From assembly GCA_002897735.1 (NCBI GenBank), contig BDTW01000034.1, positions 37,230-101,229 on the forward strand: a stretch of DNA of 64,000 nt. Reading direction: 5' to 3'. Numbering within the stretch: the first letter of the stretch is position 1; the number at the start of each line of letters is the position of its first letter. Of the stretch, positions 1 to 20,281 are shown one piece after another. The position numbers and the translations under genes were made by a program. The notes below the pieces were generated by a model. It saw only the letters and a program-made list of their open reading frames with translations, had not been told where the DNA came from and did not search any database. The stretch comes from a bacterium BMS3Bbin13. Lineage in GTDB: Bacteria > Pseudomonadota > Gammaproteobacteria > 21-64-14.

Positions 1-419
1 CGTACATCCGCCAGGACGCTTGGGCCTACGGGCAACGGCTGCGCCGCGAGCTGCCGCTGAACGAGCACGGCCTACCGCGGTTTCACCTGATCCTGCTCGG
101 AATGGGACCCGACGGGCACACCGCGTCGCTGTTTCCCGGAACCTGCATCCAGCACGAAACGTCCCTGCCGGTAGCGGCGGTGTATGTACCGCGTTTGCAT
201 ACTTGGCGCATCAGCGTCACCTACCCGCTGCTCGCGGCGGCGGACCACATCGTGCTCCTGACCGAGGGCGATGGCAAGGCTCCCATACTGGCGCGCGTGT
301 TCCGCGAACCGCCGGAGCAACCGATGCTGCCGGTCCGCCGAGTCGCCGAGTCGCACGCGACCGAGTGGTTCCTGGACGAGGCCGCCGCGGCGCAGCTACC
401 GCGGCGCGAATCGCGATGA
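1..419 (+). CDS. pgl: 6-phosphogluconolactonase, 5'-truncated at window edge
   Basis: Frame 3 translates ...LILLGMGPDGHTASLFPG..., the signature motif of 6-phosphogluconolactonase / NagB-type sugar isomerases. The stop at 417-419 overlaps the glk start as ATGA. Confidence 0.8.
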   Translation, partial: YIRQDAWAYGQRLRRELPLNEHGLPRFHLILLGMGPDGHTASLFPGTCIQHETSLPVAAVYVPRLHTWRISVTYPLLAAADHIVLLTEGDGKAPILARVFREPPEQPMLPVRRVAESHATEWFLDEAAAAQLPRRESR

Positions 420-1420
420 AGGTGCTGGCCGGCGATGTCGGTGGCACCAAGACCCTGCTGCTGGTGGCCGAGTGCAATGCCGGAGGTTGCCGGAAACTGC
501 GGCAGGAACGCTTCGAGAGCGACGCCTATGACGGGCTGTCGCCGATGGTGCAGGGGTTCCTGTCCACGGCGGGGGACGCGGCCGAGGGCCTCGATCACGC
601 CTGCTTCGGCATCGCCGGTCCGGTGGAGGGGAACGCCGGCGGACAGCGGGCACGCGTAACCAATCTGCCCTGGGAATTGGACAGCACGCAACTCGCCGCC
701 ACGTTGGGACTGGCACGGGTACGCCTGATCAACGATTTTCAGGCCGTCGGCTACGGGATCGACGCACTGCCGGCCGCCGATCTGATCCCACTCCAAGAAG
801 GACGCACGGTGCCGGGCGGCCCGCGCGTGGTGATCGGCGCCGGCACCGGCCTTGGCGAGGGACTGCTGATCTGGCAGGGCGGGCACTACGAAGTGCTGCC
901 CTCCGAGGGCGGCCACACCGACTTCGCGCCCACCGACGCGGACCAAGTGGCGGTGTTCGAGGCCTTGCGCCGGCGCTACGGCCGGGTCTCCTACGAGCGG
1001 GTCCTATCCGGTCGGGGTCTGGTCAACCTCCTCGAACACCTGCCGCGGGCGCCCGGCGAACAACCCTCGGCGGAACTGAACGAGGCAATGCACGCGGGCG
1101 ACCCCGCGGCGGCGATCAGCGAATTCGCACTGGGGGGACGTGACCGCCTCGCAGAACGCGCCCTCGAATGCTTCGTGCGCATCTACGGCGCAAAGGCCGG
1201 CAATCTGGCCCTGACCTGCCTCGCCACCGGCGGCGTATTCCTGGCCGGCGGCATCGCGCCCAAGATCCTGCCGCGGCTGCGCGAGGGCCCGTTCATGACG
1301 GCGTTTCGCGACAAGGGCCGCATGGCCGGGCTGTTGGCCACCCTTCCGGTGCGGGTGATCCGCAACCCGCAGGTCGGGCTCCTGGGAGCGGCGCTGGCGG
1401 CCATGAAGTCGGCAGGTTGA
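416..1420 (+). CDS. glk: glucokinase
   Basis: MKVLAGDVGGTKT... is the ROK/glucokinase N-terminal ATP-binding motif. Length about 334 aa. ATGA start/stop overlap with pgl (the pgl-glk arrangement of the Entner-Doudoroff/zwf cluster). Confidence 0.85.
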   Translation: MKVLAGDVGGTKTLLLVAECNAGGCRKLRQERFESDAYDGLSPMVQGFLSTAGDAAEGLDHACFGIAGPVEGNAGGQRARVTNLPWELDSTQLAATLGLARVRLINDFQAVGYGIDALPAADLIPLQEGRTVPGGPRVVIGAGTGLGEGLLIWQGGHYEVLPSEGGHTDFAPTDADQVAVFEALRRRYGRVSYERVLSGRGLVNLLEHLPRAPGEQPSAELNEAMHAGDPAAAISEFALGGRDRLAERALECFVRIYGAKAGNLALTCLATGGVFLAGGIAPKILPRLREGPFMTAFRDKGRMAGLLATLPVRVIRNPQVGLLGAALAAMKSAG

Positions 1421-1475
1421 CTCGAAAATCGTTTCGCGCCGATCACCTCGTGAGGCCATCATGGTAAAGGATGCC

Positions 1476-1557
1476 GGAAAATTCAATGCGAAGGGGCCTT
1501 GCCATGGGCTTTGGTCTGCGCCGGTTGCAGGGATGTTACAATGCGAGAACTGACCCC
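1476..1557. repeat. 82-bp conserved intergenic element, copy A (76/82 identical to copy B at 5918-5999)
   Basis: Direct comparison of the two copies shows a 33-nt identical block, a 13-nt variable block, then 36 nt with one mismatch. It contains a direct repeat of CAATGCGA spaced 43 nt apart. It lies 45 nt after the glk stop and about 50 nt after the stop of the minus-strand gene ending at 1606. Confidence 0.8.
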
Positions 1558-1605
1558 GCTCTTCTTTGGCGGGGCGACACAGGCAACGCCCGCCCAAACC
1601 GCCTT

Positions 1606-2790
1606 CTACTCGGCGGCCGCTCTTCCGATGCCGTATTTCACCGCGCGGGCGGGCAGGTACCAGAGGGCGCCATCCAGCGTCATCAGGAAGCCCGCACCCA
1701 CGAGGACGAAATCGAGGTAGCTGTACGGCCCCGAGCCCAGCACCTTGTTCATGGCGAAACCGAGGCCCATGAAGGAGATGCCCGTGCGCAGGAAGGAAAG
1801 GCCGGTCCTCGCCCGCGCGTAGAGCGTCCGGTGGCCGGCGGCGATCGTCCTCTGCGCGGCGAGCATGTTGCGTTCCCGCGCGAGATAGGTGCGCTCCTTG
1901 CTGGCCGGCACCGGTCGGATGAGGGAGCAGTAATTGGTGATCGACGCCGCCATGCGGGCAAGCAAGGTCTTGTTACGTGGCTTGGCGGGGGCCTCTTCGA
2001 GGTGGTAGCGGTCGGTGAAGCGGATGGTCTCGTCGGTGACCTCCACCATGGCATGGCGCCAGGGCGCACTCATCTGCCGGCGGCGTATCTTCAGGTAATC
2101 GTAGAGCCCGGCGGCGGCCAGGCCGATCCCCGCGGCCAGGATGGCGGCGTGATACGGCTTGAGACCGTGTGCCTGGATGCGCGTCAGGGCGTTCGACAGG
2201 GCCACCATGGCCAAGCCCCAGCGCAGCAGCTTCATGGCCGTCCGCGCCCGGGCGTGCTCGGTGCGGTGGCAGGCGAGCCGGGTGCGCCACAGGGCCATGT
2301 TGTTGCGCCAATGGGCGAGCCCGGTGCGTTCGATGCCGATCAGGAGTTTCGCCTCGGCGTGCAGATAGTCCTGGATGTACCGGCGCACGTCCTCGGCGAG
2401 GGCGACGCGGAATTCGTATTGGGCCGCCGGGACGCGCCGCATCACGTCCGCCTTCATCGTCTCGCTGTGCGGATCGGCGGCCGCGATGACCGCGGTCTCG
2501 CCGAGCATCATGACCGGGAACCACTTTCCGGCCTGGAGCACGTCGCCGTCCAGGCCGGCGAACAGGCGTGACGGCACCGGCACCCGCTCGTCATACTGGA
2601 TGAAGCGGCAGCCGAAATGTCTGGAGAGCGCGGTCAGCAGTGCGCAGCGCGAGACGCCGACGTCCTTCAGCAGCACCCTTTCCAACTCGACGCCGCGGGC
2701 GGCGGCGCTTTCCTGGGCGGCGGCAAGCTGCTCCATCGTAAGGACACCGTCCTCCACCAGGGAAACGTAGGGGGTCGATTCAGTTGTCAT
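1606..2790 (-). CDS. membrane protein with N-terminal MshEN/T2SS-E N-terminal-like domain and two DUF202 (YidH-like) two-helix units
   Basis: The N-terminus LVEDGVLTMEQLAAAQE...G.ELERVLL..G.VS...LL.ALS..FG matches the MshEN/GspE_N motif. It is followed by repeated (E/A)RT.LA..RT..A..RTG...RTG + hydrophobic hairpin + FWYLPA units. It overlaps the upstream paralog by 11 bp (co-operonic). Confidence 0.6.
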   Translation of the reverse strand: MTTESTPYVSLVEDGVLTMEQLAAAQESAAARGVELERVLLKDVGVSRCALLTALSRHFGCRFIQYDERVPVPSRLFAGLDGDVLQAGKWFPVMMLGETAVIAAADPHSETMKADVMRRVPAAQYEFRVALAEDVRRYIQDYLHAEAKLLIGIERTGLAHWRNNMALWRTRLACHRTEHARARTAMKLLRWGLAMVALSNALTRIQAHGLKPYHAAILAAGIGLAAAGLYDYLKIRRRQMSAPWRHAMVEVTDETIRFTDRYHLEEAPAKPRNKTLLARMAASITNYCSLIRPVPASKERTYLARERNMLAAQRTIAAGHRTLYARARTGLSFLRTGISFMGLGFAMNKVLGSGPYSYLDFVLVGAGFLMTLDGALWYLPARAVKYGIGRAAAE

Positions 2791-4378
2791 GGCTGAAAGA
2801 GATCCGCTCCCAGGACACGGCCGGCTCGCTGTAGTCGGGGTGGACGATTTCGAAGTCGCCGACGCAGAACGGCGAACGTCGCTTGATCCGTTCCGCCGGC
2901 AGGAACCAGTAGAGGCCGTCGCCGATCAGGTACAGGCCGACGACCACGAGCAGGATGTCGAACGCCGCCCAGAATGCGTTTTCGCCGCCGAAATAGACGA
3001 ACAGGCCGGCGCCCACCGCCATGATGCTGAAGCCGGTCCGGATGAAGGCCGCTCCAGTGCGCGAGCGCGCCATCATGGTTCGCAACAGCGACATCGCGTT
3101 GCGTCTGTCGGCGAGCACGGTGCGCACCAGCGCAAGGCCCGTGGTGGCCCACACTCCGGGTTGAGCCTGAGGGGATAACGCCTCGGCCGACTGATCCTGG
3201 TTTAGTGTCGTGTAGAGGCACAACGAAGGGAATATGAGGTCCCAGAGGCCTTTCTTCCCGCCCGCCTTGTCGATGGTTTCGCGGCCGATATTGGCCGCCT
3301 TCCTGCCCGGCAAGTACCAATAGAATCCTTCCGCCAGCATGATCGTGCCCGCGGCGATCAGCGTCCAGTCGAACACCGACCACGGACCTGGATGGAACTG
3401 GCGAAAGAAGCCAATACCGATGCCGACGAAGGCGACGCCGGTACGGCCGAAGGCGAGGCCGGTCCGGGCCTTGGCCATCATGGTCCGCAGGTAGGCCTGG
3501 ACCGTTCTCTCTTCAGCGAGATTGAGGCGGTCGTTGGCCAGAAAACGCCGTCTTTCGACCGGAGAGAGCGAGTCCCAGTCCTGCCTCAATGCCGCGGCGC
3601 TCTCCACCACGGCGCTGCGGCCGAAGTTCATGTCTCCGCCGGGATCGGAGACCTCCAGTACGGAAAATCCCTCCGGCACGTCGTAAAGCGGGTAGCGCTT
3701 GATTTCCCTTGTTTCCCGCCGCGCCGGCAGGTACCAGAACAGGCCGTCGGCGATGGCGGCAACACCCAAAACCAGCAGCGGGATCTCCACCGACAGCAAA
3801 TCCCCCGCACCGAAAAGCCGCAAGAACACCACGGCGATGCTCACGCAGGCGAGCCCAGTACGGGTGAGCGCGAGTCCGGTCCGGCTCCTCGCAAACTGGG
3901 TCCTCTGGGCGGCATAGCGGGTGCGAACGATGGCGAGATAGGTCCTCGCCTTGGCCAGCGGCGTCCTTCCGGCCGAGGCGGGAAAATCCGCATTCAAGTC
4001 CCAGCTGTTTTCGATGAGCCGGATGAGATCGGGGCGCGTGGCGACCCGGAAAACGATCTTGTCGACGCCAAGGGCCTCCCGGATGCTCCGGTTCAGATCG
4101 GGGTCGTCAGGATTGCAGGCGATGACCTCTGCACTGTCTCCGCTGACCGACAGTGGCATCCACAGTTCGGACCTTAGCGTGTCCAGGTCCAGGCGCTGCA
4201 GGATGGTCTGCGGTACCGTCAGATCCTCGTCGTATTCGACGGTCGGACAGGCGTAACGCCTCGAGAGGCAGGCTAGGATTTCATGTTTTGGAGAGCCCGG
4301 ATGGCAGGTCGCCTCTTCCGGGCAAGGGCCCCTACAGGGAGCGGCTTGCTGAATGTGTTGTTCGTTCTCGCGGGTCAT
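2780..4378 (-). CDS. paralogous membrane protein: MshEN/T2SE_N-like N-terminal domain plus three DUF202-like two-helix units
   Basis: 532 aa. N-terminal region resembles GspE_N. Three repeats of ...RT.LA..RT..A..RTGLA..RTG... followed by two TM helices and a (F/L)(Y/F)W(Y/F)LPA motif. The last 11 bp overlap the downstream paralog. Confidence 0.6.
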   Translation of the reverse strand: MTRENEQHIQQAAPCRGPCPEEATCHPGSPKHEILACLSRRYACPTVEYDEDLTVPQTILQRLDLDTLRSELWMPLSVSGDSAEVIACNPDDPDLNRSIREALGVDKIVFRVATRPDLIRLIENSWDLNADFPASAGRTPLAKARTYLAIVRTRYAAQRTQFARSRTGLALTRTGLACVSIAVVFLRLFGAGDLLSVEIPLLVLGVAAIADGLFWYLPARRETREIKRYPLYDVPEGFSVLEVSDPGGDMNFGRSAVVESAAALRQDWDSLSPVERRRFLANDRLNLAEERTVQAYLRTMMAKARTGLAFGRTGVAFVGIGIGFFRQFHPGPWSVFDWTLIAAGTIMLAEGFYWYLPGRKAANIGRETIDKAGGKKGLWDLIFPSLCLYTTLNQDQSAEALSPQAQPGVWATTGLALVRTVLADRRNAMSLLRTMMARSRTGAAFIRTGFSIMAVGAGLFVYFGGENAFWAAFDILLVVVGLYLIGDGLYWFLPAERIKRRSPFCVGDFEIVHPDYSEPAVSWERISFSHDN

Positions 4379-4687
4379 GAGCCCATTCTCTTCGGCTGAT
4401 TCAAATCGCTGGGTGTTTCACCGGCCCCTCACACCGGGGCGGCTCAGGCGTGGAGTCGCCCGTTCACCCGGCGCACTGTCCGACACGATCCCCCGGCACT
4501 TCCCTCGGAGTGGTTGCCTTGCGCCTGAGCGCGTCGTAAGCAGCCCGGTTCACTATGCCACTATGCTTCATAGCCGTCGAATTGTATCAAAATGGCTCTG
4601 TTGGATTTCGAGTGGGTTGGCCTGCCTATTCCACACATCTTTTGAGGCCAAGGGTGCGGGAAGTCGATGAGTGACGGTATTGCGAGG

Positions 4688-4989
4688 TTATCCGTTGCAG
4701 AGCTGTCGGCGGAAGGCGCCGACGAGCGGGTAGACCCAGACGCTTTTGACCGGCTCGGCGTGACGATGCAGCCGATCGAGCTTGCCACGTCCCTTGGTGT
4801 CGCCCAGGTATTGCCGGTTGGCGGCCTTGTAGCAGGTGCCCGCGAAGCGGGGCTTTTCGACGAAGGTTTCCAGCAGGACCGGCCGGTACGCATAACGGGC
4901 ATGCCAGTCGTCCGCGAGGCGTCGGGCGACCAGGGCGAGGACGCGCGAGGCGAGGTTACGGCACCGGATCCACGCCAGGATGAGGAAGC
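4688..4989 (-). pseudogene. C-terminal fragment of a DUF4338-like protein (family recalled from Druantia DruA-type proteins)
   Basis: Minus-strand translation ...RPVLLETFVEKPRFAGTCYKAANRQYLGDTKGRGKLDR...FRRQLCNG* has no start codon. An in-frame stop lies immediately upstream at 4990-4992, followed by GGAATTCGGGGA direct repeats. The family assignment is from memory of the motif. Confidence 0.4.
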
Positions 4990-5208
4990 ATCAAATGGCT
5001 CCGGAATTCGGAATTCGGGGACAGCGGAATTCGGGGATAGTGTACCTAATTCGTGCCTGTCTGTTATGCGATTACGGTGATCCGCGAATCGGCCTCTCCT
5101 TGAACGACTGCCAACGCCGGCGCGATCCTGCGAGCGAGTGACGATCGCAAATGGGTATACTGTCACTGGAATACGGTGATTTGCAACGTTATGCTGCCAC
5201 CAAACATT

Positions 5209-5237
5209 TTGTAACCTGATACGTAATAGGTTACACT
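5209..5237 (+). promoter_or_regulatory. sigma70-like promoter (TTGTAA-17-TACACT) overlapping a GTAACCT...AGGTTAC operator palindrome upstream of higB
   Basis: Hexamers with a 17-bp spacer. The 7-bp inverted repeat between them is typical of antitoxin-autoregulated TA promoters. The ATG is only about 7 nt after the -10, so the mRNA may be leaderless. Confidence 0.5.
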
Positions 5238-5243
5238 CCAGAT

Positions 5244-5522
5244 ATGATGCGAAACTTCAAGCATAAGGGGCTTGAAAAATATTTCCTGAAGGGAATCAAA
5301 TCAGGGATTCAGGCCAAACATGCTGCCCGGCTGAGAATAATTCTCGGCCGGTTAAACGCTGCGACAAACCCAAAGGACATGAATCTTCCGGGCCTGAAGT
5401 TACATCAACTTAGCGGGCGTAGGAACGGCGTCTGGTCGGTTTGGGTTAGTGGCAACTGGCGTGTCACATTTCGTTTCGACGGGAAGGATGCCGAAGCTGT
5501 TGATTATGAAGATTATCATTGA
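5244..5522 (+). CDS. higB: type II toxin HigB (RelE/ParE superfamily, plasmid maintenance system killer)
   Basis: 92 aa, ...HKGLEKYF...LPGLKLHQLSG...WSVWVSGNWRVTFRF... matches the HigB family. Followed 6 nt later by the HigA-type antitoxin. Confidence 0.85.
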   Translation: MMRNFKHKGLEKYFLKGIKSGIQAKHAARLRIILGRLNAATNPKDMNLPGLKLHQLSGRRNGVWSVWVSGNWRVTFRFDGKDAEAVDYEDYH

Positions 5523-5528
5523 GGTGTA

Positions 5529-5819
5529 ATGATGAAGATGCATAACCCGCCCCATCCCGGTGAAGTGCTTCGCGAGCTGTGTATAGAACCAATGGGGCTG
5601 AGTATCACCGAAGCTGCTGAGGCTCTTGGTGTTAGCCGGAAAACCCTTTCTGCCATATTGAATGGTCGGGCCGGCATTAGCCCTGAAATGGCGGTTCGTC
5701 TTTCTTTGGCATTCGGAACCTCCGCTGAGAGCTGGTTGAATCAGCAGGCGCAGTATGATCTATGGGAGGCAGAGAAAAAGCGCAAGACGTTGAAGGTCAG
5801 GAAGCTATCGGCAGCATAA
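5529..5819 (+). CDS. higA: antitoxin HigA (XRE-family HTH)
   Basis: 96 aa, ...GEVLRE...[42 protein letters not shown]... is the HigA HTH_3 antitoxin signature. Confidence 0.85.
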
Positions 5820-5864
5820 GGCAAGTTCGATACGGGCGCTCTTTTGGGGTCCACCTCAGAGAAA

Positions 5865-5916
5865 GGGGACGGAGGGAATATTGTTTATTCCCTCCGTCCC
5901 CTTTCTCCCCTTTCTC
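5865..5916 (+). terminator. rho-independent terminator of higBA
   Basis: Perfect 16-bp stem GGGGACGGAGGGAATA / TATTCCCTCCGTCCCC with a 5-nt loop, followed by TTTCTCCCCTTTCTC. Confidence 0.7.
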
Positions 5917-5917
5917 A

Positions 5918-5999
5918 GGAAAATTCAATGCGAAGGGGCCTTGCCATGGGTTTTCGTCTACATCGGTTGCAGGGATGTTACAACGCGAGAACTGACCCC
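5918..5999. repeat. 82-bp conserved intergenic element, copy B
   Basis: See copy A. It lies 31 nt downstream of the stop (6031) of the minus-strand HTH antitoxin gene and directly after the higBA terminator. It is followed by T-runs (ATTTTTTCGACCCCCGTTTTTTCCGTTTTTT). Confidence 0.8.
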
Positions 6000-6030
6000 A
6001 TTTTTTCGACCCCCGTTTTTTCCGTTTTTT

Positions 6031-6330
6031 CTACTCGTGCGCTGCTTCGGCATGTAGTTTCAAACCTAAAGCTGCCACCACTCTGAGAATTGTGTCGAAG
6101 CCTGGGGTTCGTTCCCCTGAAAGTGCTTTATAGAGACTTTCTCGCGACAAGCCGGCATCGCGCGCCACTTGAGACATACCCTTGGCGCGGGCGATGTCAC
6201 CAAGTGCCTTTGCAATCAAAGCCGCATCGCCGTCTGCCTCATCAAGGCACGCTTCCAAATAGGCGGCCATTTCCTCCGGGGTACGAAGATGTTCGGCGAT
6301 ATCGTAGCGAGTAGTAATAGTCTTGCGCAT
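6031..6330 (-). CDS. addiction-module antidote protein (HigA-2-like XRE HTH antitoxin)
   Basis: 99 aa, ...DIAEHLRTPEEMAAYLEACLDE...ALGDIARAKGMSQVARDAGLSRESLYKALSGERTPGFDTILRV.ALGL.L is the classic 'probable addiction module antidote protein' HTH. Downstream of and co-oriented with the toxin. Confidence 0.85.
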   Translation of the reverse strand: MRKTITTRYDIAEHLRTPEEMAAYLEACLDEADGDAALIAKALGDIARAKGMSQVARDAGLSRESLYKALSGERTPGFDTILRVVAALGLKLHAEAAHE

Positions 6331-6341
6331 TAGGAGTGTTC

Positions 6342-6632
6342 CTACAGATTATGAGCAAGGCGCAATGCAGTCTTGATATCTTTGGCTTGGGTGCGCTTAT
6401 CACCGCCAGCCAACAGAATTACCAATTCACGCCCTTGCTGTTTGTAATACACCCGATAACCGGGGCCATAGCCGATCCGCAACTCAGAGACGCATTCACC
6501 CACAGGCGCGGTGTCTCCCGGATTTCCCGCTGCCAAGCGTTCAACCCTCGTGAGCACTCGAGCCCGCGCCCGGATATCGTGCAGCCCATCGAGCCACTTG
6601 GCATACACCTCCGTTTTGCGAATCTCCAGCAT
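6342..6632 (-). CDS. addiction-module killer toxin (RelE/ParE superfamily)
   Basis: 96 aa, MLEIRKTEVYAKWLDGLHD..ARARVLTRVERLAAGNPGD...VGECVSELRIGYGPGYRVYYKQQG.ELVILLAGGDKRTQAKDI is the 'putative addiction module killer protein' family. Confidence 0.85.
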   Translation of the reverse strand: MLEIRKTEVYAKWLDGLHDIRARARVLTRVERLAAGNPGDTAPVGECVSELRIGYGPGYRVYYKQQGRELVILLAGGDKRTQAKDIKTALRLAHNL

Positions 6633-6638
6633 CGCTCA

Positions 6639-6667
6639 ACTGTAGCCCGCTGGCTACACGTTGTCAA
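6639..6667 (-). promoter_or_regulatory. sigma70 promoter TTGACA-17-TACAGT with GTAGCC..GGCTAC operator palindrome for the RelE/HTH operon
   Basis: On the minus strand: TTGACAacgtgtagccagcgggcTACAGT, about 6 nt upstream of the toxin ATG. Consensus -35 and near-consensus -10. The inverted repeat sits in the spacer. Confidence 0.6.
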
Positions 6668-6682
6668 TTGTCTTTCCTGACC

Positions 6683-6823
6683 GTCGCAGTAGGAACACCG
6701 GTTACCCGGTGACCCCTGCACAGATCCCGGCGTGCGATTTGCCCACACCGGGCTCTTCAGTCATACTCACTTGCGTAGAAGTGCAGTGACTCACGCAAGC
6801 CTCCGATTCATACCGCCCTGTGG
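6683..6823. repeat. 141-bp repeat, copy 1 (about 93% identical to copy 2 at 7247-7387)
   Basis: Two copies 564 bp apart, each immediately 5' (on the minus strand) of a cassette-like gene. Each contains three local hairpins: CACCGG-TTAC-CCGGTG, CCCGGCGTGCG..CGCACCGGG and TTGCGT..ACGCAA. Confidence 0.8.
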
Positions 6824-6880
6824 CGCGTTTTTGCGTCAGCAAAATGAGTGCCGCTTTTGACTGTCCGTTGCTGCTATTTG

Positions 6881-7237
6881 TTAGCACTGGGCGGCCAGAT
6901 ACTTGTAAAGCTTACGGCAAACCGTATCAAGCTCATTTTGCCATGTCTCGTTATCATAGTGAATTAACGGACCTTCTCCAGAATCTATATAGTACGTGAG
7001 GAATCTCTGTATTGATTTATTGCCACGATGCCCGTTTCCCACTTCTTCAACAAGGTAGCCTCCTAACGCATGTAGTGCTACGGAGTAACGTTGCTTAGTA
7101 CTTTTGCTTTTCTTATCAAGACCTGCCCAGTTCCAGAATTCTTGAAAGATCAACAGTAACTCTTCAGATGTTTTCCTTTCCTGAGCTGGCTTTACGCCGT
7201 TGCGCCAGTCTGCGATCCATTCTGTTGCTGGTTTCAT
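6881..7237 (-). CDS. hypothetical protein (cassette-like ORF, no recognised family)
   Basis: 118 aa from ATG at 7237 (MKPATEWIADWRNG...). The longer ORF in the track starts inside the 141-bp repeat. The TAA stop is embedded in TGCTAAC. Lower GC than the surroundings. Confidence 0.45.
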   Translation of the reverse strand: MKPATEWIADWRNGVKPAQERKTSEELLLIFQEFWNWAGLDKKSKSTKQRYSVALHALGGYLVEEVGNGHRGNKSIQRFLTYYIDSGEGPLIHYDNETWQNELDTVCRKLYKYLAAQC

Positions 7238-7246
7238 ATCAAGTGC

Positions 7247-7387
7247 GTCGCAGTAGGAACACCGGTTACCCGGTGACCCCTGCACAGATCCCGGCGTGCG
7301 GTTTTCCCGCACCGGGCTCTTCAGTCCTACTCACTCGCGCAGAAATGCAGTGACTCACGCAAGCCTCCGATTCATACCGCCCTGTGG
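7247..7387. repeat. 141-bp repeat, copy 2
   Basis: See copy 1. It ends 9 nt before the ATG of the 6881-7237 gene on the minus strand. Confidence 0.8.
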
Positions 7388-7526
7388 GTCTGGTTGGGTG
7401 ATGGAAAGGCGTATGCCTTCAATACCCGCTTGATCCCCTCCCACGTCAGGCTTCGCCTTTGGCTCCGTCGATTCAACCACTTGTAGAGCAATTTGACCAC
7501 CTCCCTGTAAAATATCCACAGTAGGG

Positions 7527-7594
7527 GGAATAGGGGACAGACCACGGTTTTCCTGGAGATTTCCGCGATAAAACCGTGGTCTGTCCCCTATTCC
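7527..7594. repeat. perfect 25-bp inverted repeat (GGAATAGGGGACAGACCACGGTTTT / AAAACCGTGGTCTGTCCCCTATTCC) with an 18-nt loop
   Basis: Seen directly. It lies 3 nt from the GTTAGGC motif and 13 nt from the stop of the 7608-8027 gene. Confidence 0.85.
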
Positions 7595-7604
7595 TTGGTT
7601 AGGC
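7595..7604. other. integron core-site-like motif GTTAGGC (GCCTAAC on the gene strand, containing the region of the ORF stop); left copy of a 10-bp inverted repeat GTTAGGCATT
   Basis: GTTAGGC at 7598-7604 matches GTTRRRY. Its inverse GCCTAAC at 8051-8057 lies 23 bp upstream of the same gene's ATG. The flanks extend to 10/10 bp inverted identity (GGTTAGGCATT vs AATGCCTAACG). Confidence 0.5.
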
Positions 7605-7607
7605 ATT

Positions 7608-8027
7608 TTACTCTTCCCATACCGGATATTGCTCTGGCTTGTTGCCCGCCTCACTAACTACCCTTGGATAGCTTATGCCTTGCTTCGGTTTCTGAGGATT
7701 GTTTCTGGATTTTGTTATTTTAAACAACCAACTATCTCCATAATCGAACATATAATATAACCTTCTATCTTTTTCGAGCGGATATACGCTCTCTAAAGTC
7801 GTGCTATATATTCCTCCATCTTCATCATCAAATCGTATGCGATCACGGCTTCTTTCTGTTCTTGATATATAAAACTCATACAGATGATCATTATCAAACT
7901 CTACCGCATCCTGAATCGTAAAATGTAGGGATTCAAGAGTTGACGCGGAATCTATTTCAACTGTTGTTTGCCACTTTTCTTTCGCATAGGCGCCAAATAT
8001 TAATTCAATTTTAAAAGTCCAAATCAT
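7608..8027 (-). CDS. pRiA4b ORF-3-like family protein (hypothetical)
   Basis: 139 aa. ...YYMFDYGDSWLFKITK... matches the Y.FD(F/Y)GD.W.H.I motif of the plasmid pRiA4b ORF-3-like family. Low GC. Flanked by inverse core-like heptamers. Confidence 0.55.
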   Translation of the reverse strand: MIWTFKIELIFGAYAKEKWQTTVEIDSASTLESLHFTIQDAVEFDNDHLYEFYISRTERSRDRIRFDDEDGGIYSTTLESVYPLEKDRRLYYMFDYGDSWLFKITKSRNNPQKPKQGISYPRVVSEAGNKPEQYPVWEE

Positions 8028-8050
8028 TAAACTGGCCCTCTTTTTTCAAT

Positions 8051-8060
8051 GCCTAACGTA
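8051..8060. other. right copy of the inverted GTTAGGCATT motif (attI/attC-like core GCCTAAC on top strand)
   Basis: On the minus strand this reads GTTAGGC followed 23 nt later by the ATG of the first cassette-like ORF, i.e. the arrangement of an attI or attC R' site followed by a cassette. Confidence 0.45.
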
Positions 8061-8252
8061 TTAGCATTATATCCGACGTGCGCAGCATGGTGGATAAATG
8101 TATGTTGGGCTAAGCCGCCCATCAGGGTGGCGCTTACTTAATTTATAGGGAAATGTATTGGGTGGATCGATCGTGGCGCGATGGTGGCTGCGCGGATCTG
8201 CGCGCCGACGGCGCCTTCGGGTTCTGATTAACCATGCAGGATGCCTCTGTGA

Positions 8253-8534
8253 GGGTCGATTTTCGTCAATCTAACGCCGTTTCCATCGAAAAGCCAATCC
8301 AGGGCGTGCACACAGCGCGCTGTGCGCAACGCCGGGCGCCGGGCAGGCATCCACAAGAAGGCCTCTTGCCATACCTTCCGACACTGCTTCGCCACTCATC
8401 TTCTGGAACGGGGGCATGACATCCGCACGGTGCAGGAACTATTGGGGCACAAGGACGTAAAAACGACGATGATTTATACCCACGTGATCCAGCGCGGCGG
8501 GCACGGGGTACGGAGCCCGTTGGATGGGATGTGA
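8253..8534 (+). pseudogene. intI: integron integrase (IntI) C-terminal remnant, about 76 aa of about 320
   Basis: ...[73 protein letters not shown]. The HxxR...Y catalytic C-terminus plus the IntI-specific GVRSPLD tail; compare IntI1 ...[71 protein letters not shown]. Similarity stops at about 8305. An in-frame stop lies at 8250. Upstream is AT-rich non-coding. Confidence 0.75.
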
Positions 8535-8577
8535 GGCCGTGATGAAAGGCTGTGCATCGAGGGTACGGGGGATGTGT

Positions 8578-10020
8578 TTACCGGGCGGCCCCCGGCGCAC
8601 GCAGCAGGGTCCGGCCGTTGACTGTCAAGCGCCCCGAGTCGTAGCGCAGTACCGCTCGGCACTCGCCGCCGTCGCATTCCAGCAGGCCCCGGGCCTTCAG
8701 GGACTGCATTCGCTGTCGGCCCATCAACGTCGCCACCCGCACGATCTGTGCCGGGTCGAGTCTCTGCACGGCGCCTTTGCCGCGTGCGGCGAGCAGTTGC
8801 GAGCGCGCCCGGGTGACCAAGACCGCGCGCAGTACCGTCGTGGGGACGCGCAGTTCCGCATCGCCCACGAGCCGCTTCCACGCGTCAGGACCGGGCGTAA
8901 CGGACGCGGGGAGCTTCACGCGCCCGCGCAGCAGTACCGGGCCCGCCCCGGTACGCAGGCTCAGATCGAGGACGATCTCGGGTGAGCGGCGCAGCAGGTC
9001 GGGCAGTATCGCGAGCATCTGCCCGGCAAACCGGCGGCGGAGCGCCGCCGGGTCCGCGACCTGATCGCGCAGGCGGCGCATCGCCTTCTGCAGACGCACC
9101 ACGGCGTCCGTATCCAGACGAGCGATGCGTAATTCATAGATCAGGGGCCCGACCTCGATCGCACCGGCCCGGATCGTGCGCGCCCGCATCGCCATGCGCA
9201 CCGTCATGGCGCCGTCGTGTTCGGCGCCGGCACTGTGCAGATCCAGCCCCGTTACCGAGAGAGAGGTTCGTTTCGAGCCGGTCGCGGCGGCATCGAGGGA
9301 GGCCGCCCGCAGCGTCATCTCCCCCTGCATCAGCCCGGAGGGGGCGCGGCGGCTGTGGCCCTCCAGGCTCACGTCCCGCAGGCGCACGAAGGCGACGGGG
9401 CCGTCGATCTCCAGTCCCGGCGCCGTGAAGCGTTCGGTGACACGGCCGAAGTCGGCACTCCATCCGACCCGTCCGCGCAGGCCGCCCCACACGACCCGCT
9501 GCGCGCCATATGGGGCGGCCCGCAGTGGGCCGACACCACGGCCGGTCCCGGTCAGGCGCCAGGCCGGCATTCGCACATCGGTGTCGCTGCGCCCGGACAG
9601 GTACACCACGGTCACCGCTTCCAGGGGCTTGGCGGGGAGCCCCGAACCGGTCCCGAAACCGGACTTGGCATCGCCGATCAAAACGCTGTGGATCACCGCC
9701 AGCACCGGCGCCACGCCGTCGCGCCGGCCGGCCACCGGATACGGGCCGTGTTCGATCCGCTCATCGAGGTCGAAGCCGAACTGCGGCAGGGCCAGGGCGG
9801 GACCCGGTGGCGGGGTCAGGGTGACCCGGATCCGGGCGCGCGAGGAAAACCAGCCGCGTTCGTAGTCGACGATGCGCAGGCGAAACGGGCCGGCCCGCCC
9901 GGCCTCGCGCACTAAGGCGCGGACCTCCCGCTCGACACGGATCCCCATCCAGTACGGCAGGGCCAGGGCGGCTATCGCTACGGCCGTAGCCGCGGCGAGG
10001 ACGAGAACTTTCCTGGGCAT
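8578..10020 (-). CDS. DUF945 (YdgA-like) family protein, N-terminal membrane anchor
   Basis: About 480 aa from MPRKVLVLAAATAVAIAALALPYW...; ...IVDYERGWFSSRARIRVTL resembles the YdgA-family N-terminal motif (Y.RG.FSS). Confidence 0.45.
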   Translation of the reverse strand: MPRKVLVLAAATAVAIAALALPYWMGIRVEREVRALVREAGRAGPFRLRIVDYERGWFSSRARIRVTLTPPPGPALALPQFGFDLDERIEHGPYPVAGRRDGVAPVLAVIHSVLIGDAKSGFGTGSGLPAKPLEAVTVVYLSGRSDTDVRMPAWRLTGTGRGVGPLRAAPYGAQRVVWGGLRGRVGWSADFGRVTERFTAPGLEIDGPVAFVRLRDVSLEGHSRRAPSGLMQGEMTLRAASLDAAATGSKRTSLSVTGLDLHSAGAEHDGAMTVRMAMRARTIRAGAIEVGPLIYELRIARLDTDAVVRLQKAMRRLRDQVADPAALRRRFAGQMLAILPDLLRRSPEIVLDLSLRTGAGPVLLRGRVKLPASVTPGPDAWKRLVGDAELRVPTTVLRAVLVTRARSQLLAARGKGAVQRLDPAQIVRVATLMGRQRMQSLKARGLLECDGGECRAVLRYDSGRLTVNGRTLLRAPGAAR

Positions 10021-10187
10021 GGCGATTCCCGGCGCGGAGTGGAGTGAGGTTCCCGCCACGATCTCCCGCCGGCCGCGAATCCGGTCTCGGGATCTTCGAA
10101 TCGGACCCGGGTATCGGCCGGGAGGCTATGCGCTTTAACGGGTTGCGGGCCCTTGCACCTGCGGCCCGCTTCGGTTGAAATACGCTT

Positions 10188-10571
10188 ATGAGTGATCGAG
10201 CCACCTATCAGATCGACGTGCAGGTCGAATCCATGTACGTGGAAGAGCAGTCGGCACCGGCCGACCGTCGCTACGTGTTCGCCTACACGGTGACCATCCG
10301 CAACACCGGCGGGATCCCGGCCCAACTGCTGACGCGCCATTGGATCATCACCGATGCCAATGCCAAGGTTCAGGAGGTGCGCGGCGAGGGCGTCGTCGGC
10401 GAGCAGCCGCATCTCAGGCCCGGCGAGGGCTTTCAATATACCAGCGGCACGATGATCGAGACGCCCGTGGGCAGTATGCGGGGCAGCTACCGGATGCACG
10501 CCGACAACGGCGTCGATTTCGAGGCGGAGATTCCCCCCTTCACCCTCGCCGTACCGCGCGTCCTGCACTGA
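10188..10571 (+). CDS. apaG: Co2+/Mg2+ efflux protein ApaG (DUF525)
   Basis: 127 aa, ...RYVFAYTVTIRNTGG.PAQLL.RHWIITDANAKVQEV.GEGVVGEQPHL.PGE.FQYTSG... is a typical ApaG. Followed by apaH. Confidence 0.85.
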   Translation: MSDRATYQIDVQVESMYVEEQSAPADRRYVFAYTVTIRNTGGIPAQLLTRHWIITDANAKVQEVRGEGVVGEQPHLRPGEGFQYTSGTMIETPVGSMRGSYRMHADNGVDFEAEIPPFTLAVPRVLH

Positions 10572-10655
10572 CCGTCAAGTTCACGCCCCATCTGCGGGCC
10601 CGCTCCCCGCGGCGGCTCGCATCGGCCGTGGGCCCCGACCAGGGAATCCGGCGAC

Positions 10656-11492
10656 ATGGCCGTATATGCCATCGGCGATCTCCACGGCTGCCTCGACGAA
10701 TTGCGGCGGCTGCTGGAACGCCTGTCCTTCGATCCGGCGCACGACCGGCTGTGGTTCACAGGGGATCTCGTCAACCGCGGTCCGCACTCGCTCGAGTGCC
10801 TGCGTTTCGTGCGCGGGCTGGGCGAGAGGGCGGTGACGGTGCTGGGCAATCACGATCTACACCTGCTCGCCCGGACCGTGGGTGCCGCGGATGACCGTCA
10901 CGGCCGCGATACGCTCGATGCGGTATTGGCTGCGCCCGATCGCGGCGAACTCCTGGAATGGCTGCGGCGGCGCCCCCTGCTGCACCACGACCCGGCCCTC
11001 GGCTATACCCTGATCCACGCCGGCCTGCCGCCGCAGTGGGATCTGGCATCGGCACGTACCTGCGCCGTGGAAGTCGAACAGGCGCTGCAAGGACCGCAGT
11101 TCACGGAGCTGATGCTCCATCTCTACGGCAACCGGCCGAACCGCTGGAGCCCGAATCTGGCGGGCTGGGACCGGCTGCGGTTCAGCATCAATTGCTTCAC
11201 GCGCCTGCGCTATTGCAGCGACGACGGCCGGTTGGCCCTCGGGGAGAAAGGCCCGCCCGGCACGCAGCCGGCACCCTTCCGACCCTGGTTCTCCGTGCCG
11301 GGACGCGCGAGCGCCGGACTGCGCCTGATATTCGGGCACTGGTCGACGCTCGGGCCGTGTTCCGAACCGGGCGTCTTCCCGCTGGACACCGGCTGCGTGT
11401 GGGGGGGGCGCCTGACCGCGCTACGCCTCGACGGCGAACCGCACCGGACCCACGTCCCCTGTCCGACCGCCTGCACGCCCCGCGCCGACTGA
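10656..11492 (+). CDS. apaH: bis(5'-nucleosyl)-tetraphosphatase (symmetrical) ApaH
   Basis: MAVYAIGDLHGCLDELRRLL... is the metallophosphoesterase motif. 278 aa. The apaG-apaH pair is conserved. Confidence 0.9.
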   Translation: MAVYAIGDLHGCLDELRRLLERLSFDPAHDRLWFTGDLVNRGPHSLECLRFVRGLGERAVTVLGNHDLHLLARTVGAADDRHGRDTLDAVLAAPDRGELLEWLRRRPLLHHDPALGYTLIHAGLPPQWDLASARTCAVEVEQALQGPQFTELMLHLYGNRPNRWSPNLAGWDRLRFSINCFTRLRYCSDDGRLALGEKGPPGTQPAPFRPWFSVPGRASAGLRLIFGHWSTLGPCSEPGVFPLDTGCVWGGRLTALRLDGEPHRTHVPCPTACTPRAD

Positions 11493-11497
11493 CCGGG

Positions 11498-11989
11498 TCA
11501 GTCGGCGACCCGCTCCAGGGTCAGGAAAGTCATGGCGTGGGCATTGTCGGCGTCGGCCGGGTATTCCTCGCGCGCGCACTCGCGCCACGTGCCCGGCGCG
11601 AGTTCCGGAAAACGAGCGTCGCCCGACGGGCGCGCGTGCACCAGCGTCAGGTGGATACGCCGCGCGAGCGGGAGGGCCGTGCCGTAGATCTGCGCGCCGC
11701 CGATGATCATCGCCTCCTCGGCGGGCGTACACGCCGCCAATGCATCTTCCAACGAAGCGGCATGCACGCAACCCGGCGCCGAGAATGCGGGGTTGCGGCT
11801 CACCACGATATTCATGCGCTGTGGGAGCGCCCGGCCGATCGACTCATAGGTGCGCCGCCCCATGATCACCGGCCTGCCGAGAGTGATACGTTTGAAGTGC
11901 CGCAGATCCGCGGGCAGGTGCCAGGGCAGGCGCCCGTGCGTGCCGATCACGCGGTTCTCCGCCATCGCCGCCACCAGCGAGACGATCAT
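11498..11989 (-). CDS. folA: dihydrofolate reductase
   Basis: MIVSLVAAMAENRVIGTHGRLPWHLPADLRHFKRITLGRPVIMGRRTYESIG... is the DHFR signature. Confidence 0.9.
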   Translation of the reverse strand: MIVSLVAAMAENRVIGTHGRLPWHLPADLRHFKRITLGRPVIMGRRTYESIGRALPQRMNIVVSRNPAFSAPGCVHAASLEDALAACTPAEEAMIIGGAQIYGTALPLARRIHLTLVHARPSGDARFPELAPGTWRECAREEYPADADNAHAMTFLTLERVAD

Positions 11990-12028
11990 CCGCGCCGCCC
12001 GCCCCGGGCGGACGCGACCCGGTTTTCT

Positions 12029-12823
12029 TCAAACCGCGACCGGTGCCTTGATCGGATCATGACAGCGATAGTCCAGCAGTTCGAAGTCCTCGTAGCGGAA
12101 TCCGAACAAATCGTCGACCCGCGGATTCAGGCGCATCGTCGGCTGCGGGTAGGGGGTGCGGGAGAGTTGCAACCGGACCTGCTCGAGGTGGTTCAGGTAG
12201 AGGTGGGCGTCACCCAGCGTATGGATGAACTCCCCCGGCGCGAGTCCGCAGACCTGCGCCGTCATGAGCGTGAGCAGGGAATAGGAGGCGATATTGAACG
12301 GCAGCCCGAGGAAGATATCGGCGCTGCGCTGGTAGAGTTGGCACGAGAGCCGCCCGTCGGCGACGTAGAACTGGAACAGGACGTGGCAGGGCGGCAACGC
12401 CATACGCGGCAGCTCGCCCACGTTCCACGCACTGACCAGCAGCCGGCGCGAATCGGGATCGGTACGGATCGCCTCCACCACCTCGCGGATCTGGTCGATC
12501 CGCCGCCCGTCGGCCGCCGGCCAGGAGCGCCACTGGGAACCGTAGACCGGCCCGAGTTCGCCGCGCTCGTCGGCCCACTCGTCCCAGATATGGACACCGT
12601 TCTTTTGCAGATAGGCGATGTTCGTCTCGCCGCGCAGGAACCAGAGCAGTTCGTGGATGATCGACTTGAGGTGCAGCTTCTTGGTGGTGACCGCCGGGAA
12701 GCCGCGGGAGAGGTCGAAGCGCATCTGGTGACCGAACACGCTCAAGGTACCCGTACCGGTGCGGTCCCCCTTGCGGGTGCCGCACTCCGATACATGGCGC
12801 ATCAGTTCGAGATAGGCCTGCAC
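12029..12823 (-). CDS. thyA: thymidylate synthase
   Basis: 264 aa with ...[29 protein letters not shown]...[16 protein letters not shown]... (ThyA active-site region). Confidence 0.95.
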
Positions 12824-12839
12824 GTTCGGGCGTCTTCCC

Positions 12840-13655
12840 TTATGGGGCGAGGGGCCGGGCCTGCCGGCGATAGGCCCACCACAACAGCAACGCGCCGGCG
12901 ACGATCATCGGGAACGAGAGCACCTGCCCCATGGTCAACCAGCCGAAGGCGAGGTAGCCGAGTTGCGGGTCCGGCATGCGCACGAATTCGACGGCGAAAC
13001 GGAATGTCCCGTAAAGCAGCAGGAACAACCCCGAAACGGCCATGATCGGGCGCGGCCTGCGCGAATAGAGCCACAGGATCGTGAACAGCACCACGCCTTC
13101 CAGAAACACCTCGTAGAGCTGCGAGGGCTGATGCGGCGCGCGACACAGGTACTGCGGAAAGCGGTCGCAGGGCAGCTTCATCGCCCACGGCAGGTTCGAG
13201 GCCTTGCCCCACAGTTCGCCGTTGATGAAGTTGCCGATGCGCCCCGCGCCGAGCCCGATCGGCACCAGCGGTGCCACGAAATCGGCGACCTGGAAGAACG
13301 CCTTGCCATAGCGGCGCCCGAACCACCACATCCCGGCCAGCACGCCCAGCAGGCCGCCGTGGAACGACATCCCGCCCTGCCAGACCTTCAACAGCACGAG
13401 CGGATTGTGCAGGAAACCCGGCAGGTCGTAGAACAGCATGTAGCCGATGCGCCCGCCCAGGATCACCCCCAGGAAGCCGTAGAACATCAGGTCCGCGACC
13501 TGATCGCGGTCCCAGTCCAAACCGGGCCGTGTCGCCCGCACGCGCGCCAGCCACCACGCCGCCGAGAAACCCACCAGGTACATGAGCCCGTACCAGCGCA
13601 CTTTGAGCGGCCCCAGGCTGAGCGCGATGGGACTGATGTCCGGATAGGTCAGCAT
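12840..13655 (-). CDS. lgt: prolipoprotein diacylglyceryl transferase
   Basis: 271 aa, ...[22 protein letters not shown]...[10 protein letters not shown]...HGGLLGVL... is the Lgt signature. The lgt-thyA adjacency is conserved. Confidence 0.9.
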
Positions 13656-13697
13656 GCCGTCGTCCCGTCGGTCGGCGCCCTGCGGGCGCCCGCGGTC

Positions 13698-20083: not shown

Positions 20084-20281
20084 AAGAGCATCTCCCGCCT
20101 GTGCCGTGGGGGGCCTTCGCCCTTGAACCACTTGGTTCAGGTGGGGACATCGGCCGGCGAATCAGGCTTTCCGCACAGCGGCGGACTTGCACACAACGCC
20201 GGCGACTCCGTCCCCAGGGCGCCACGATAGGGCCAAGGATCTTCCAGGCCCCCGCCTCGAACACCGCAGGAGATGCCAAAC
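20084..20281 (-). ncRNA. ssrS: 6S RNA (SsrS)
   Basis: Immediately downstream of zapA as in other gammaproteobacteria. The minus strand contains CACCUGAACCAAGUGGUUCAAGGGCGAAGG (compare E. coli 6S ACCUUGAACCAAGGGUUCAAGGG). The terminal GGCAUCUCCUGC...GCAGGCGGGAGAUGC forms a closing stem. Ends are approximate (+/-10 nt). Confidence 0.8.

Follow-up and report, generated by a model that had tools for sequence, protein, structure and literature searches.

A probable fossil sedentary integron with group II intron debris in a hydrothermal-vent Chromatiales lineage

The islet and its integrase stump

A 64,000-nucleotide stretch of contig BDTW01000034.1 (positions 37,230 to 101,229, hereafter the window) contains an islet that lies between core genes and ends in the 3' stump of an integron integrase gene (intI). 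Next to the stump are small open reading frames (ORFs), remnants of group II introns and toxin-antitoxin (TA) modules. The host is an uncultured hydrothermal-vent Chromatiales lineage (bacterium BMS3Abin12/BMS3Bbin12). We consider it very likely that a sedentary chromosomal integron fossilized here, leaving the islet with its intron debris and TA modules between a DUF945 gene and a pair of MshEN/DUF202 genes (Table 1). The genes apaG and apaH lie downstream of the DUF945 gene. The GC profile of the window falls to 0.39-0.55 at about 5000-8300, against 0.61-0.73 in both flanks, in keeping with a drop at about 5.1-8.3 kb reported in a preliminary description that was made from the sequence alone. 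That description also reported an absence of tRNA genes, and none was found in window positions 1-14000. All comparison sequences used below come from metagenome assemblies. A scan of a species-level genome collection with the DUF945 protein gave one relative only, an "uncultured Chromatiales bacterium" on a 1.9-kb contig, and the left border of the islet is therefore not comparable across species.

The right edge of the islet had been described as the tail of an integron integrase, and profile searches agree. The open frame that carries the tail (8253-8534) aligns to positions 241-315 of the 315 positions of TIGR02249 ("integron integrase") with 134.7 bits, against 88 bits for XerD and 81 bits for XerC over the same residues (81-89 bits with archaeal XerA included). 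With no more than 75 of the 315 positions left, the score does not reach the full-length cut-off (265). The stump begins at QRAV and everything 5' of codon Q (8309-8313) is gone, including the IntI-specific patch (ALxRKYPxAxxxWxWQ); the window holds no intact intI ORF. A complete integron would carry attI and Pc at the 5' end of intI, and here the 5' ~720 nt of the gene and the region upstream are deleted at 8309. This truncation point is common to all strains of the population. A longer ORF in one strain allele (L003, GWIRHSH...) was considered as additional intI sequence and rejected, since TIGR02249 aligns to it only from QRAV on, which places its truncation at the same point.

The missing part of intI had been described as replaced by AT-rich non-coding DNA. 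This is not simple filler, as a 60-nt attC-like palindrome lies at 8051-8110. All that could remain upstream of the stump is 8271-8308 (...GGCGTTAGAT), which resembles the L'-UCS (unpaired central spacers)-R' ends of bona fide attC sites and, by that resemblance rather than by any score, is possibly the 3' stump of a recombination site.

Near full-length or partial intI sequences beside orthologous DUF945 genes indicate how old the gene is at this place. Contig L015 shares 91% DNA identity with the window from position 8313 on, through the DUF945 gene, and carries a near full-length intI at the same place with two frameshifts. The L015 gene keeps the IntI-specific patch and, once corrected for the frameshifts, matches TIGR02249 over positions 1-315 of 315 with 495 bits. 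In L014, a contig of a Chromatiales metagenome-assembled genome with 90% identity, the same DUF945 gene has a different, central piece of intI (VTVFPEVLRDPLRQQLERARALHATDLRDGFGRVWLPY) fused to its end. The comparison with relatives that had been proposed at the outset thus recovered other states of intI at one locus, as is expected of a sedentary integron, and no intact copy. The presence of intI pieces at one locus in three lineages implies that an intact integron integrase stood there in their common ancestor. On these alignments, intI is ancestral at the locus and has decayed independently in the three lineages.

A protein search with the integrase tail retrieved short fragments only; the full-length relative came from contig L015. 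C-terminal IntI fragments of 70-154 aa are very numerous in public assemblies (proteins P0001-P0120), some of them on contigs of 50-110 kb, and a length of about 151-154 aa with an internal Met start (ML/TP...) recurs. This suggests that decayed intI stumps like that of the window are common.

Table 1 Features of the islet, in window coordinates.
Feature	Coordinates	Strand	Description
Islet	~4380-8540		Between core genes; left flank, two tandem MshEN/DUF202 genes (end 4378); right flank, DUF945 gene 8578-10020
DruA/DUF4338 C-terminal pseudogene fragment	4690-5000	-	PF14236, 1.9e-15 on the translated fragment
HigB toxin	5244-5522	+	PF05015, 6.6e-18
HigA antitoxin	5529-5819	+	TIGR02607, 3.6e-34, 116 bits (cut-off 47.7)
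Hairpin I2	5859-5907		Perfect, 22-bp arms
HI1420-type antidote	6031-6330	-	TIGR02684, 7.5e-36, 122.2 bits (cut-off 53.7)
RelE/ParE-family (HI1419-type) toxin	6342-6632	-	TIGR02683, 9.1e-37, 125.4 bits (cut-off 62.85)
Group II intron remnant 2	6682-6823 (142 nt)	-	Domains V-VI; 95% identical to remnant 1; intron 3' end 6683
Truncated attC of ORF118 cassette	6824-6886	-	R'' (TGCTAAC), spacer, L'' and part of central region; 3' ~35 nt with L' and R' gone
ORF118 cassette ORF, 118 aa	6881-7237	-	From ORF list; stop codon within TGCTAAC
Group II intron remnant 1	7246-7522 (277 nt)	-	5'-truncated; last ~55 codons of intron-encoded protein (IEP) and domains V-VI; intron 3' end 7247
Recombination site of PRiA4 cassette, 5' part	7523-7606	-	R'' GCCTAAC (7606-7600), 4-nt spacer, hairpin I1 (7594-7527); no R' box
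PRiA4_ORF3-domain cassette ORF, 139 aa	7608-8027	-	PF07929, 1.3e-16; cassette start G|TTAGGC (8057/8056)
attC-like imperfect palindrome	8051-8110 (60 nt)	-	GCCCAAC...GTTAGGC; best attC-model match in window, L002 and L003
Possible 3' stump of a recombination site	8271-8308	-	Ends ...GGAAACGGCGTTAGAT; R'-like GTTAGAT 8277-8271; abuts intI deletion endpoint
intI 3' remnant	8309-8534	+	~75 codons and stop; TIGR02249 match; 5' ~240 codons deleted

Cassette ORFs, recombination sites and intron remnants

Rfam holds no attC family, and we used home-made attC covariance models, whose E-values are rough owing to a shortened calibration. Public metagenomes were scanned with the closest longer IntI fragment, yielding 80 IntI-bearing loci; canonical sites upstream of intI were picked by core-site pattern and folding, and 22 were aligned as the seed of model R1, with R, L and 6-bp stems as its pairs. 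R1 found 95 sites in the 80 loci, nearly all upstream of intI and on the opposite strand, and true sites outside the seed scored about 17-58 bits. Model R2 was rebuilt from these 95 sites. The window and the two most different strain alleles, L002 and L003, were searched with both models, filters off.

The first ORF beside the integrase stump encodes a PRiA4_ORF3-domain protein. Exact-protein look-ups with this ORF and with its neighbor ORF118 returned the same locus only; L104, a low-coverage contig from the same community, was reached through a cluster member of 97% identity. L104 holds a copy of the PRiA4 ORF (96.7% DNA identity) placed 21 nt behind an attC at 616-717 (R2 30.5 bits, E 4.7e-5) with the R' box GTTAAAC, and its homology to the window sets in at window position 8062, beside the R' box GTTAGGC (8057-8051). 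The same ORF is thus found in different arrays with a G|TT boundary. A gene that stands after two distinct attC sites and whose homology breaks at the G|TT crossover bears the mark of cassette movement by the integrase. The core sites that had been placed around this ORF, GCCTAAC at 8051-8057 and GTTAGGC at 7600-7606 on the + strand, are both present. After the ORF, the sequence reads GCCTAAC-CAAG-hairpin I1-CCCCTA and then enters intron remnant 1. I1 is an inverted repeat with 25-bp arms that are 100% complementary, and its DNA fold reaches -31 kcal/mol (z about -9). R2 gave no attC-model match at 7523-7606. A pairing of the GCCTAAC beside I1 with GTTGAAT at 7471-7477 was tried as an attC and rejected, since its two R boxes do not complement each other and its GTT belongs to the IEP tail.

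ORF118 matches no Pfam or NCBIfam family except for a weak SAM-like integrase N-domain match (E 0.065). The preliminary description noted that this ORF ends inside a TGCTAAC motif, and the motif appears to be the R'' box of an attC. On the - strand, 50 of the 58 nt at 6885-6828 (86%) are identical to the 5' part of the attC at 9493-9590 of contig L098, and none of 2000 shuffles aligned as well. Only the 5' ~58 nt of the site remain downstream of ORF118, the 3' half being replaced by intron remnant 2. The L098 site itself scores 32.2 bits with R2; further L098 sites score 32.6 and 14.5 bits, and an attC in contig L096 scores 19.2 bits. We assign L098 to the same organism because its Dus protein has the sequence annotated in bacterium BMS3Bbin12, and the organism therefore has in it a second, better preserved array of the same attC family. 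This integrase-less array lies beside dus at 7600-12500 (NODE_1405 of ERZ1742237) and also holds an Mrr_cat gene, an AAA_22 ATPase gene, an intron remnant and hairpin I2. Judged by these comparisons, the PRiA4 ORF and ORF118 are real cassettes.

By the model test, no functional-looking attC is present in the window, and one degenerate site at most. Strict RYYYAAC...GTTRRRY pairs spaced 45-170 nt apart occur at only two places in the 64 kb, both in the islet, one being 8051-8110 and the other the rejected pair beside I1. The best model match, at 8051-8110, forms a + strand hairpin of -12.6 kcal/mol (z -2.6), yet its interior is off the canonical spacing and only its R and L boxes align to the model; in one strain (L011) both R boxes are mutated. 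Unrelated hits of R1 and R2 reach 11.9-13 bits. A short ORF-less cassette at 8111-8276 probably had this palindrome, now degenerate, as its attC, and the R' box of the palindrome forms the start of the next cassette, that of the PRiA4 ORF. R2 applied with filters off to the short stretches 6824-6900, 8255-8308 and 7523-7615 gave near-zero, uninformative scores; used in this way it gives no reward to cut-off matches, and pairwise homology to bona fide attC sites was used instead. Two regions, 7240-7610 and 6640-6890, had been proposed as places where attC sites might fold. They do contain the truncated attC stumps described above, and consist mostly of the 5'-truncated ends of group II introns. 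Rfam microRNA "hits" on the hairpins of the islet are palindrome artefacts.

The two intron remnants form a direct repeat (D2) of 142 nt with 95% identity at 6682-6823 and 7246-7387, which was missed in the preliminary description, where no direct-repeat att sites were reported. The group II intron family RF00029 matches 7247-7321 with 45.3 bits, above its gathering score of 40, and 6683-6757 with 37 bits (E 2.6e-4), just under it. No match to domains 1-4 was found in the window, where only 142 and 277 nt are left of what would be a full ribozyme (domains I-VI) with an intact reverse transcriptase (RT)/maturase ORF. Proteins matched by the IEP tail (55-60 codons) carry the source annotation group II intron RT/maturase or RNA-directed DNA polymerase. 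Among 5.8 billion proteins we found 21 homologues of the tail (P0121-P0141), all of them short ORFs of 55-105 aa, and no full-length RT/maturase bearing it, in a word-index search that may miss parents with diverged tails.

Both remnants stand where the 3' end of an attC is expected, remnant 2 after the attC of ORF118 and remnant 1 after the I1 site. Both lie on the strand of the cassette ORFs, unlike the bottom-strand antisense insertions of IIC-attC introns. In L104, the 277-nt remnant (97.8% identical) runs antisense to the cassette gene, and it interrupts the same R'' box at GCC|TAAC. Related remnants with 77-86% identity lie in sense orientation in the L098 and L096 arrays, a few tens of nt before an ORF, and the copies keep domains V and VI with compensatory changes in the domain VI stem. 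In the RF00029 alignment, the domain V triad of the window copies is AGC; IIC introns have CGC at this position. Remnants also occur in L105, L108 and L109, where R2 found no attC nearby. In L002 and L003 the insertion containing remnant 2 is longer (~330 nt) and preceded by a hairpin, I1'.

Two further observations concern these relatives. The L105 copy keeps a D1-D4-6 piece upstream and is therefore internally deleted rather than 5'-truncated. L104 carries a second, more divergent intron 3' remnant at 1450-1715 (77% identical over domains V-VI). It faces the antisense remnant 1 copy head-to-head, and GTTGGGC follows it.

Toxin-antitoxin modules, palindromes and flanking features

The two type II TA modules with their own promoter or operator that were seen in the preliminary description are both present. 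In the HI1419/HI1420 module (6031-6667) both partners score above the curated cut-offs and are adjacent and co-oriented, behind a promoter TTGACA-17-TACAGT at 6667-6639. The second module has a HigB-like toxin gene followed by a helix-turn-helix antitoxin gene, preceded by an operator-like palindrome GTAACCT...AGGTTAC at about 5211-5235. HigBA had been read as part of the array, but it is not demonstrably a cassette. Exactly the segment 5209-5819, which begins with the operator palindrome and ends with the HigA stop, recurs with 81.5% identity at positions 4965-5576 of L110, a contig of another organism, where it lies beside ccmH/cycH with no attC. HigBA 5209-5819 is a free-standing mobile TA unit. 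A HigBA pair 30-40% identical to that of the window is a true cassette in the IntI locus L095.

The hairpins I1 (7527-7594), I2 and I1' (L002 375-447) form a palindrome family with 22-25-bp arms and the shared core AGGGGAC(A/G)G; among the arrays examined, they were found only in those of this organism. A copy of I2, essentially identical between the arrays, lies within L098 9590-10045, about 65 nt after an attC. I1' looks like a hairpin nested within a hairpin. The three could be attC stems perfected by snap-back copying; alternatively, they could represent a small mobile element of palindromic structure. I1 was also considered as a genome-wide repetitive extragenic palindrome or miniature inverted-repeat transposable element, and rejected for want of a further copy in the 64-kb window; I1 and I2 appeared nowhere but in the cassette arrays examined.

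The left part of the islet consists of the DruA fragment and the non-coding stretches 4380-4690 and 5000-5208. Of the interval 4380-8540 that the preliminary description assigned to an integron remnant, this left third (4380-5200) has no cassette features. Next to the DruA fragment, at the GC transition (4995-5040), are short GGAATTCGG-type repeats (ggaattcggaattcggggacagcggaattcggggatag), and the same segment contains a GGGGACAG motif that also occurs in hairpin I1. An 82-nt direct repeat (93% identical) has one copy beside I2 (5918-5999) and one outside the islet (1476-1557), where the glucokinase gene and the first MshEN/DUF202 gene flank it; nothing in Rfam matches the repeat, and the 64 kb hold no third copy. 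The left flanking genes (1606-2790 and 2780-4378) are overlapping tandem paralogues with an MshEN-like N-terminal domain and repeated DUF202 membrane segments, and their internal 50-nt repeats constitute the repeat family D1. Farther away, a 6S RNA (SsrS) is encoded at 20088-20275 on the - strand (RF00013, 71.5 bits).

Strain variation, proposed history and known systems

We compared ten contigs whose flanks are 99.5-100% identical and whose content differs inside the islet. L004 has the arrangement of the window. L001 lacks 7351-7523, a deletion flanked by the 4-nt repeat CAGT. In L003, 6824-8308 is replaced by a unit with a 192-aa ORF on the + strand, in which neither R1 nor R2 found an attC. 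L002 carries both units in tandem, with a second copy of the intI-stump segment 8309-8412 (96% identical) between them. The breakpoints lie at 6823/6824, 7350/7524 and 8308/8309, none of them at a GTT core site. Two structures may be called Campbell-type: the 104-nt intI-stump duplication (96% identical) that brackets the PRiA4 unit at L002 1679-2671, and the 142-nt intron-end duplication (95% identical) that brackets ORF118 at window 6682-7387. Both look as if small circles had been integrated by homologous recombination. The structural differences, among strains that are 99.7-99.9% identical, fit homologous recombination between repeated intron and intI stumps, together with microhomology-mediated or illegitimate deletions, rather than integrase activity.

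These findings lead us to read the islet, with high confidence, as the fossil of a sedentary integron. Several observations weigh against it. No significant attC was found in the window, where R1 scores the best match, 8051-8110, at 12.4 bits (E 0.67) and R2 scores it at 13.8 bits (E 0.55). The indications of its orientation conflict: under the rule that the bulge arm tells the attC top strand (PMC5027507), the bulge position makes the + strand the top strand, while R2 slightly favors the - strand (13.8 versus 10.5 bits). Hairpin I1 has neither extrahelical bases nor an R' box and is an attC stem only putatively. No cassette boundaries can be demonstrated for HigBA, the RelE-type module, I2, the DruA fragment or the repeat D3. 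No attI was found; there is no general attI model, and a diverged attI may have been missed. In principle, misassembly could have produced the tandem allele L002, though its junction needs real reads.

The same strain variation could be read in another way, with the islet as a platform that still works, an IntI encoded elsewhere in the genome or community acting in trans and the strain differences being insertions and excisions of cassettes. Near-identical strains do alternate between the PRiA4 unit, the 192-aa ORF unit or both in tandem beside the intI stump, the PRiA4 cassette occurs in two array contexts with a core-site boundary, and the same organism has a second array with good attC sites. 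We nevertheless find this unlikely. The strain breakpoints avoid GTT core sites, and one shows 4-nt microhomology; the 104-nt and 142-nt duplications in two alleles are typical of homologous recombination; the attC sites of both identifiable cassettes have lost their R' ends; the only complete site scores 13.8 bits and has mutated R boxes in one strain; and the alternative 192-aa unit has no attC.

It is similarly improbable, and slightly more so, that the islet is generic junk beside a dead tyrosine recombinase gene, in which TA modules, intron debris and palindromes have collected at a permissive spot and the attC-like motifs are due to chance. By our estimate about 0.5 strict core-site pairs are expected by chance per 4 kb at this composition, which together with the lack of a significant attC in the window, the free-standing HigBA beside ccm genes elsewhere and the related intron remnants with no detected attC in L105, L108 and L109 would suit such an islet. 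Three facts weigh against it: the recombinase is specifically an integron integrase, the 58 nt after ORF118 are 86% identical to a 32-bit attC, and the PRiA4 ORF stands behind a 30.5-bit attC in L104 with its boundary at the core site. Finally, we hold it extremely unlikely that intron ends and palindromes are kept by selection as a module, such as an RNA element or insulator, which lies at the 5' boundaries of cassettes and is mobilized with them: all 21 tail homologues are short (55-105 aa) with no full-length RT among the 5.8 billion proteins, copies 77-86% identical keep domains V and VI with compensatory domain VI changes, each remnant ends ~9-50 nt before an ORF start and the 277-nt unit occurs in two orientations and contexts, yet the 5' ends vary between copies as truncation predicts, L105 keeps a D1-D4 piece, the remnants contain no sigma-70-like promoter, compensatory changes are equally expected if active parents diverged before each truncation, and full-length parents with diverged tails can escape a word-index search.

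Returning to the fossil integron, we propose the following history. The ancestral layout would have been canonical, with intI on the + strand and its 3' end toward the DUF945 gene, and with cassettes on the - strand reading away from it. An intron lineage homing next to attC stem-loops may then have entered the array in cassette-sense orientation, its insertions leaving only 5'-truncated copies (IEP tail and domains V-VI) in place of L' and R' of two attC sites. The replacement of these halves by intron ends means that the two cassettes would no longer be excisable. A deletion would subsequently have removed the first ~240 codons of intI with attI and Pc, after which TA modules, perfect palindromes and the DruA fragment accumulated or were retained. 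The TA modules, with their own promoters, plausibly resist deletion and could have stabilized the islet. What remained would be a non-functional array composed of the ORF-less cassette with its degenerate 60-nt attC, the PRiA4 cassette and the ORF118 cassette.

A more specific version of this history is possible, though we regard it as rather doubtful. An intron lineage with an AGC-type domain V, unlike the IIC-attC pattern, would home to core sites on either strand and usually leave 3' stumps of ~150-450 nt; abortive insertions would delete the R' side of attC sites and so "freeze" the cassettes, and I1, I1' and I2 would be attC stems perfected by snap-back copying. If this were true, intron attack would be a general route to fossil, undetectable integron islets.

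Objects of this kind are already known. intI pseudogenes are found next to cassette arrays, as at 15 of 279 clusters of attC sites lacking integron-integrases (CALINs; Cury et al. 2016, PMC4889954), and truncated group II introns have been described in CALINs (PMC7923331). The islet resembles a CALIN or sedentary integron with an intI pseudogene (PMC4889954) in having the pseudogene beside array remnants at a fixed locus, with TA cassettes and cassettes of unknown function, and the proposed origin of CALINs, integrase loss from a once complete integron, is also that suggested here. It differs in that decay has gone further, the stump having no IntI-specific patch and no attC exceeding the covariance-model threshold. 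The preliminary description had offered a chromosomal integron remnant or a CALIN. The former stands, on intI in relatives, the PRiA4 boundary and the ORF118 attC; the latter does not, as a CALIN needs at least two attC sites and the window has no significant one. The locus would be classed neither as a complete integron, nor as an In0 or a CALIN, and an IntegronFinder-type run on the window would probably report nothing. It shows what an integron looks like once it has decayed past standard detectors, to an intI stump lacking its patch and halved attC sites, recognizable only by comparison with sister lineages and with the second array of the organism. Surveys that count complete integrons, In0 and CALINs miss such loci and hence underestimate the lineages that once had integrons.

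Type II TA cassettes occur in chromosomal integrons, for example in Vibrio superintegrons. The RelE/ParE and HigBA modules of the window, with their own promoters inside the array, are similar, except that neither shows attC boundaries and that, in another organism, the HigBA unit occurs with no array detectable around it. The insertions of classical IIC-attC introns are antisense and go into the attC bottom strand (Leon et al. 2010, PMC3001079). The present remnants share with these introns (S.ma.I2, PMC3001079) their association with attC, and the L104 copy, antisense and abutting R'', has the bottom-strand arrangement; the window copies differ in their sense orientation and their AGC domain V triad, with only a ~60-aa IEP tail for comparison.

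A matching case is a CALIN in Halorhodospira halochloris, where 5'-truncated introns keep only domains V and VI and the IEP tail, with attC-like hairpins before them, in TA-rich arrays (PMC7923331). These introns, H.ha.F1 and H.ha.F2, belong to group IIB (Sonbol and Siam 2021, PMC7923331), and a full-length IIB intron, UHB.I2, lies directly after an attC in cassette orientation (PMC7923331). The likeness of the window remnants to H.ha.F1 and H.ha.F2, drawn from description and not from sequence, is that of truncated introns in the cassette array of a Chromatiales-type gammaproteobacterium. The window remnants differ in that they visibly replace the 3' ends of identifiable attC sites, and the L104 remnant lies antisense at an R'' box. 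The locus gives a hint that intron insertion is among the ways in which attC sites are lost. It does not overturn current understanding, and adds, from deep-sea vent Chromatiales, a second independent example of TA-rich arrays whose attC sites are occupied by 5'-truncated group II introns.

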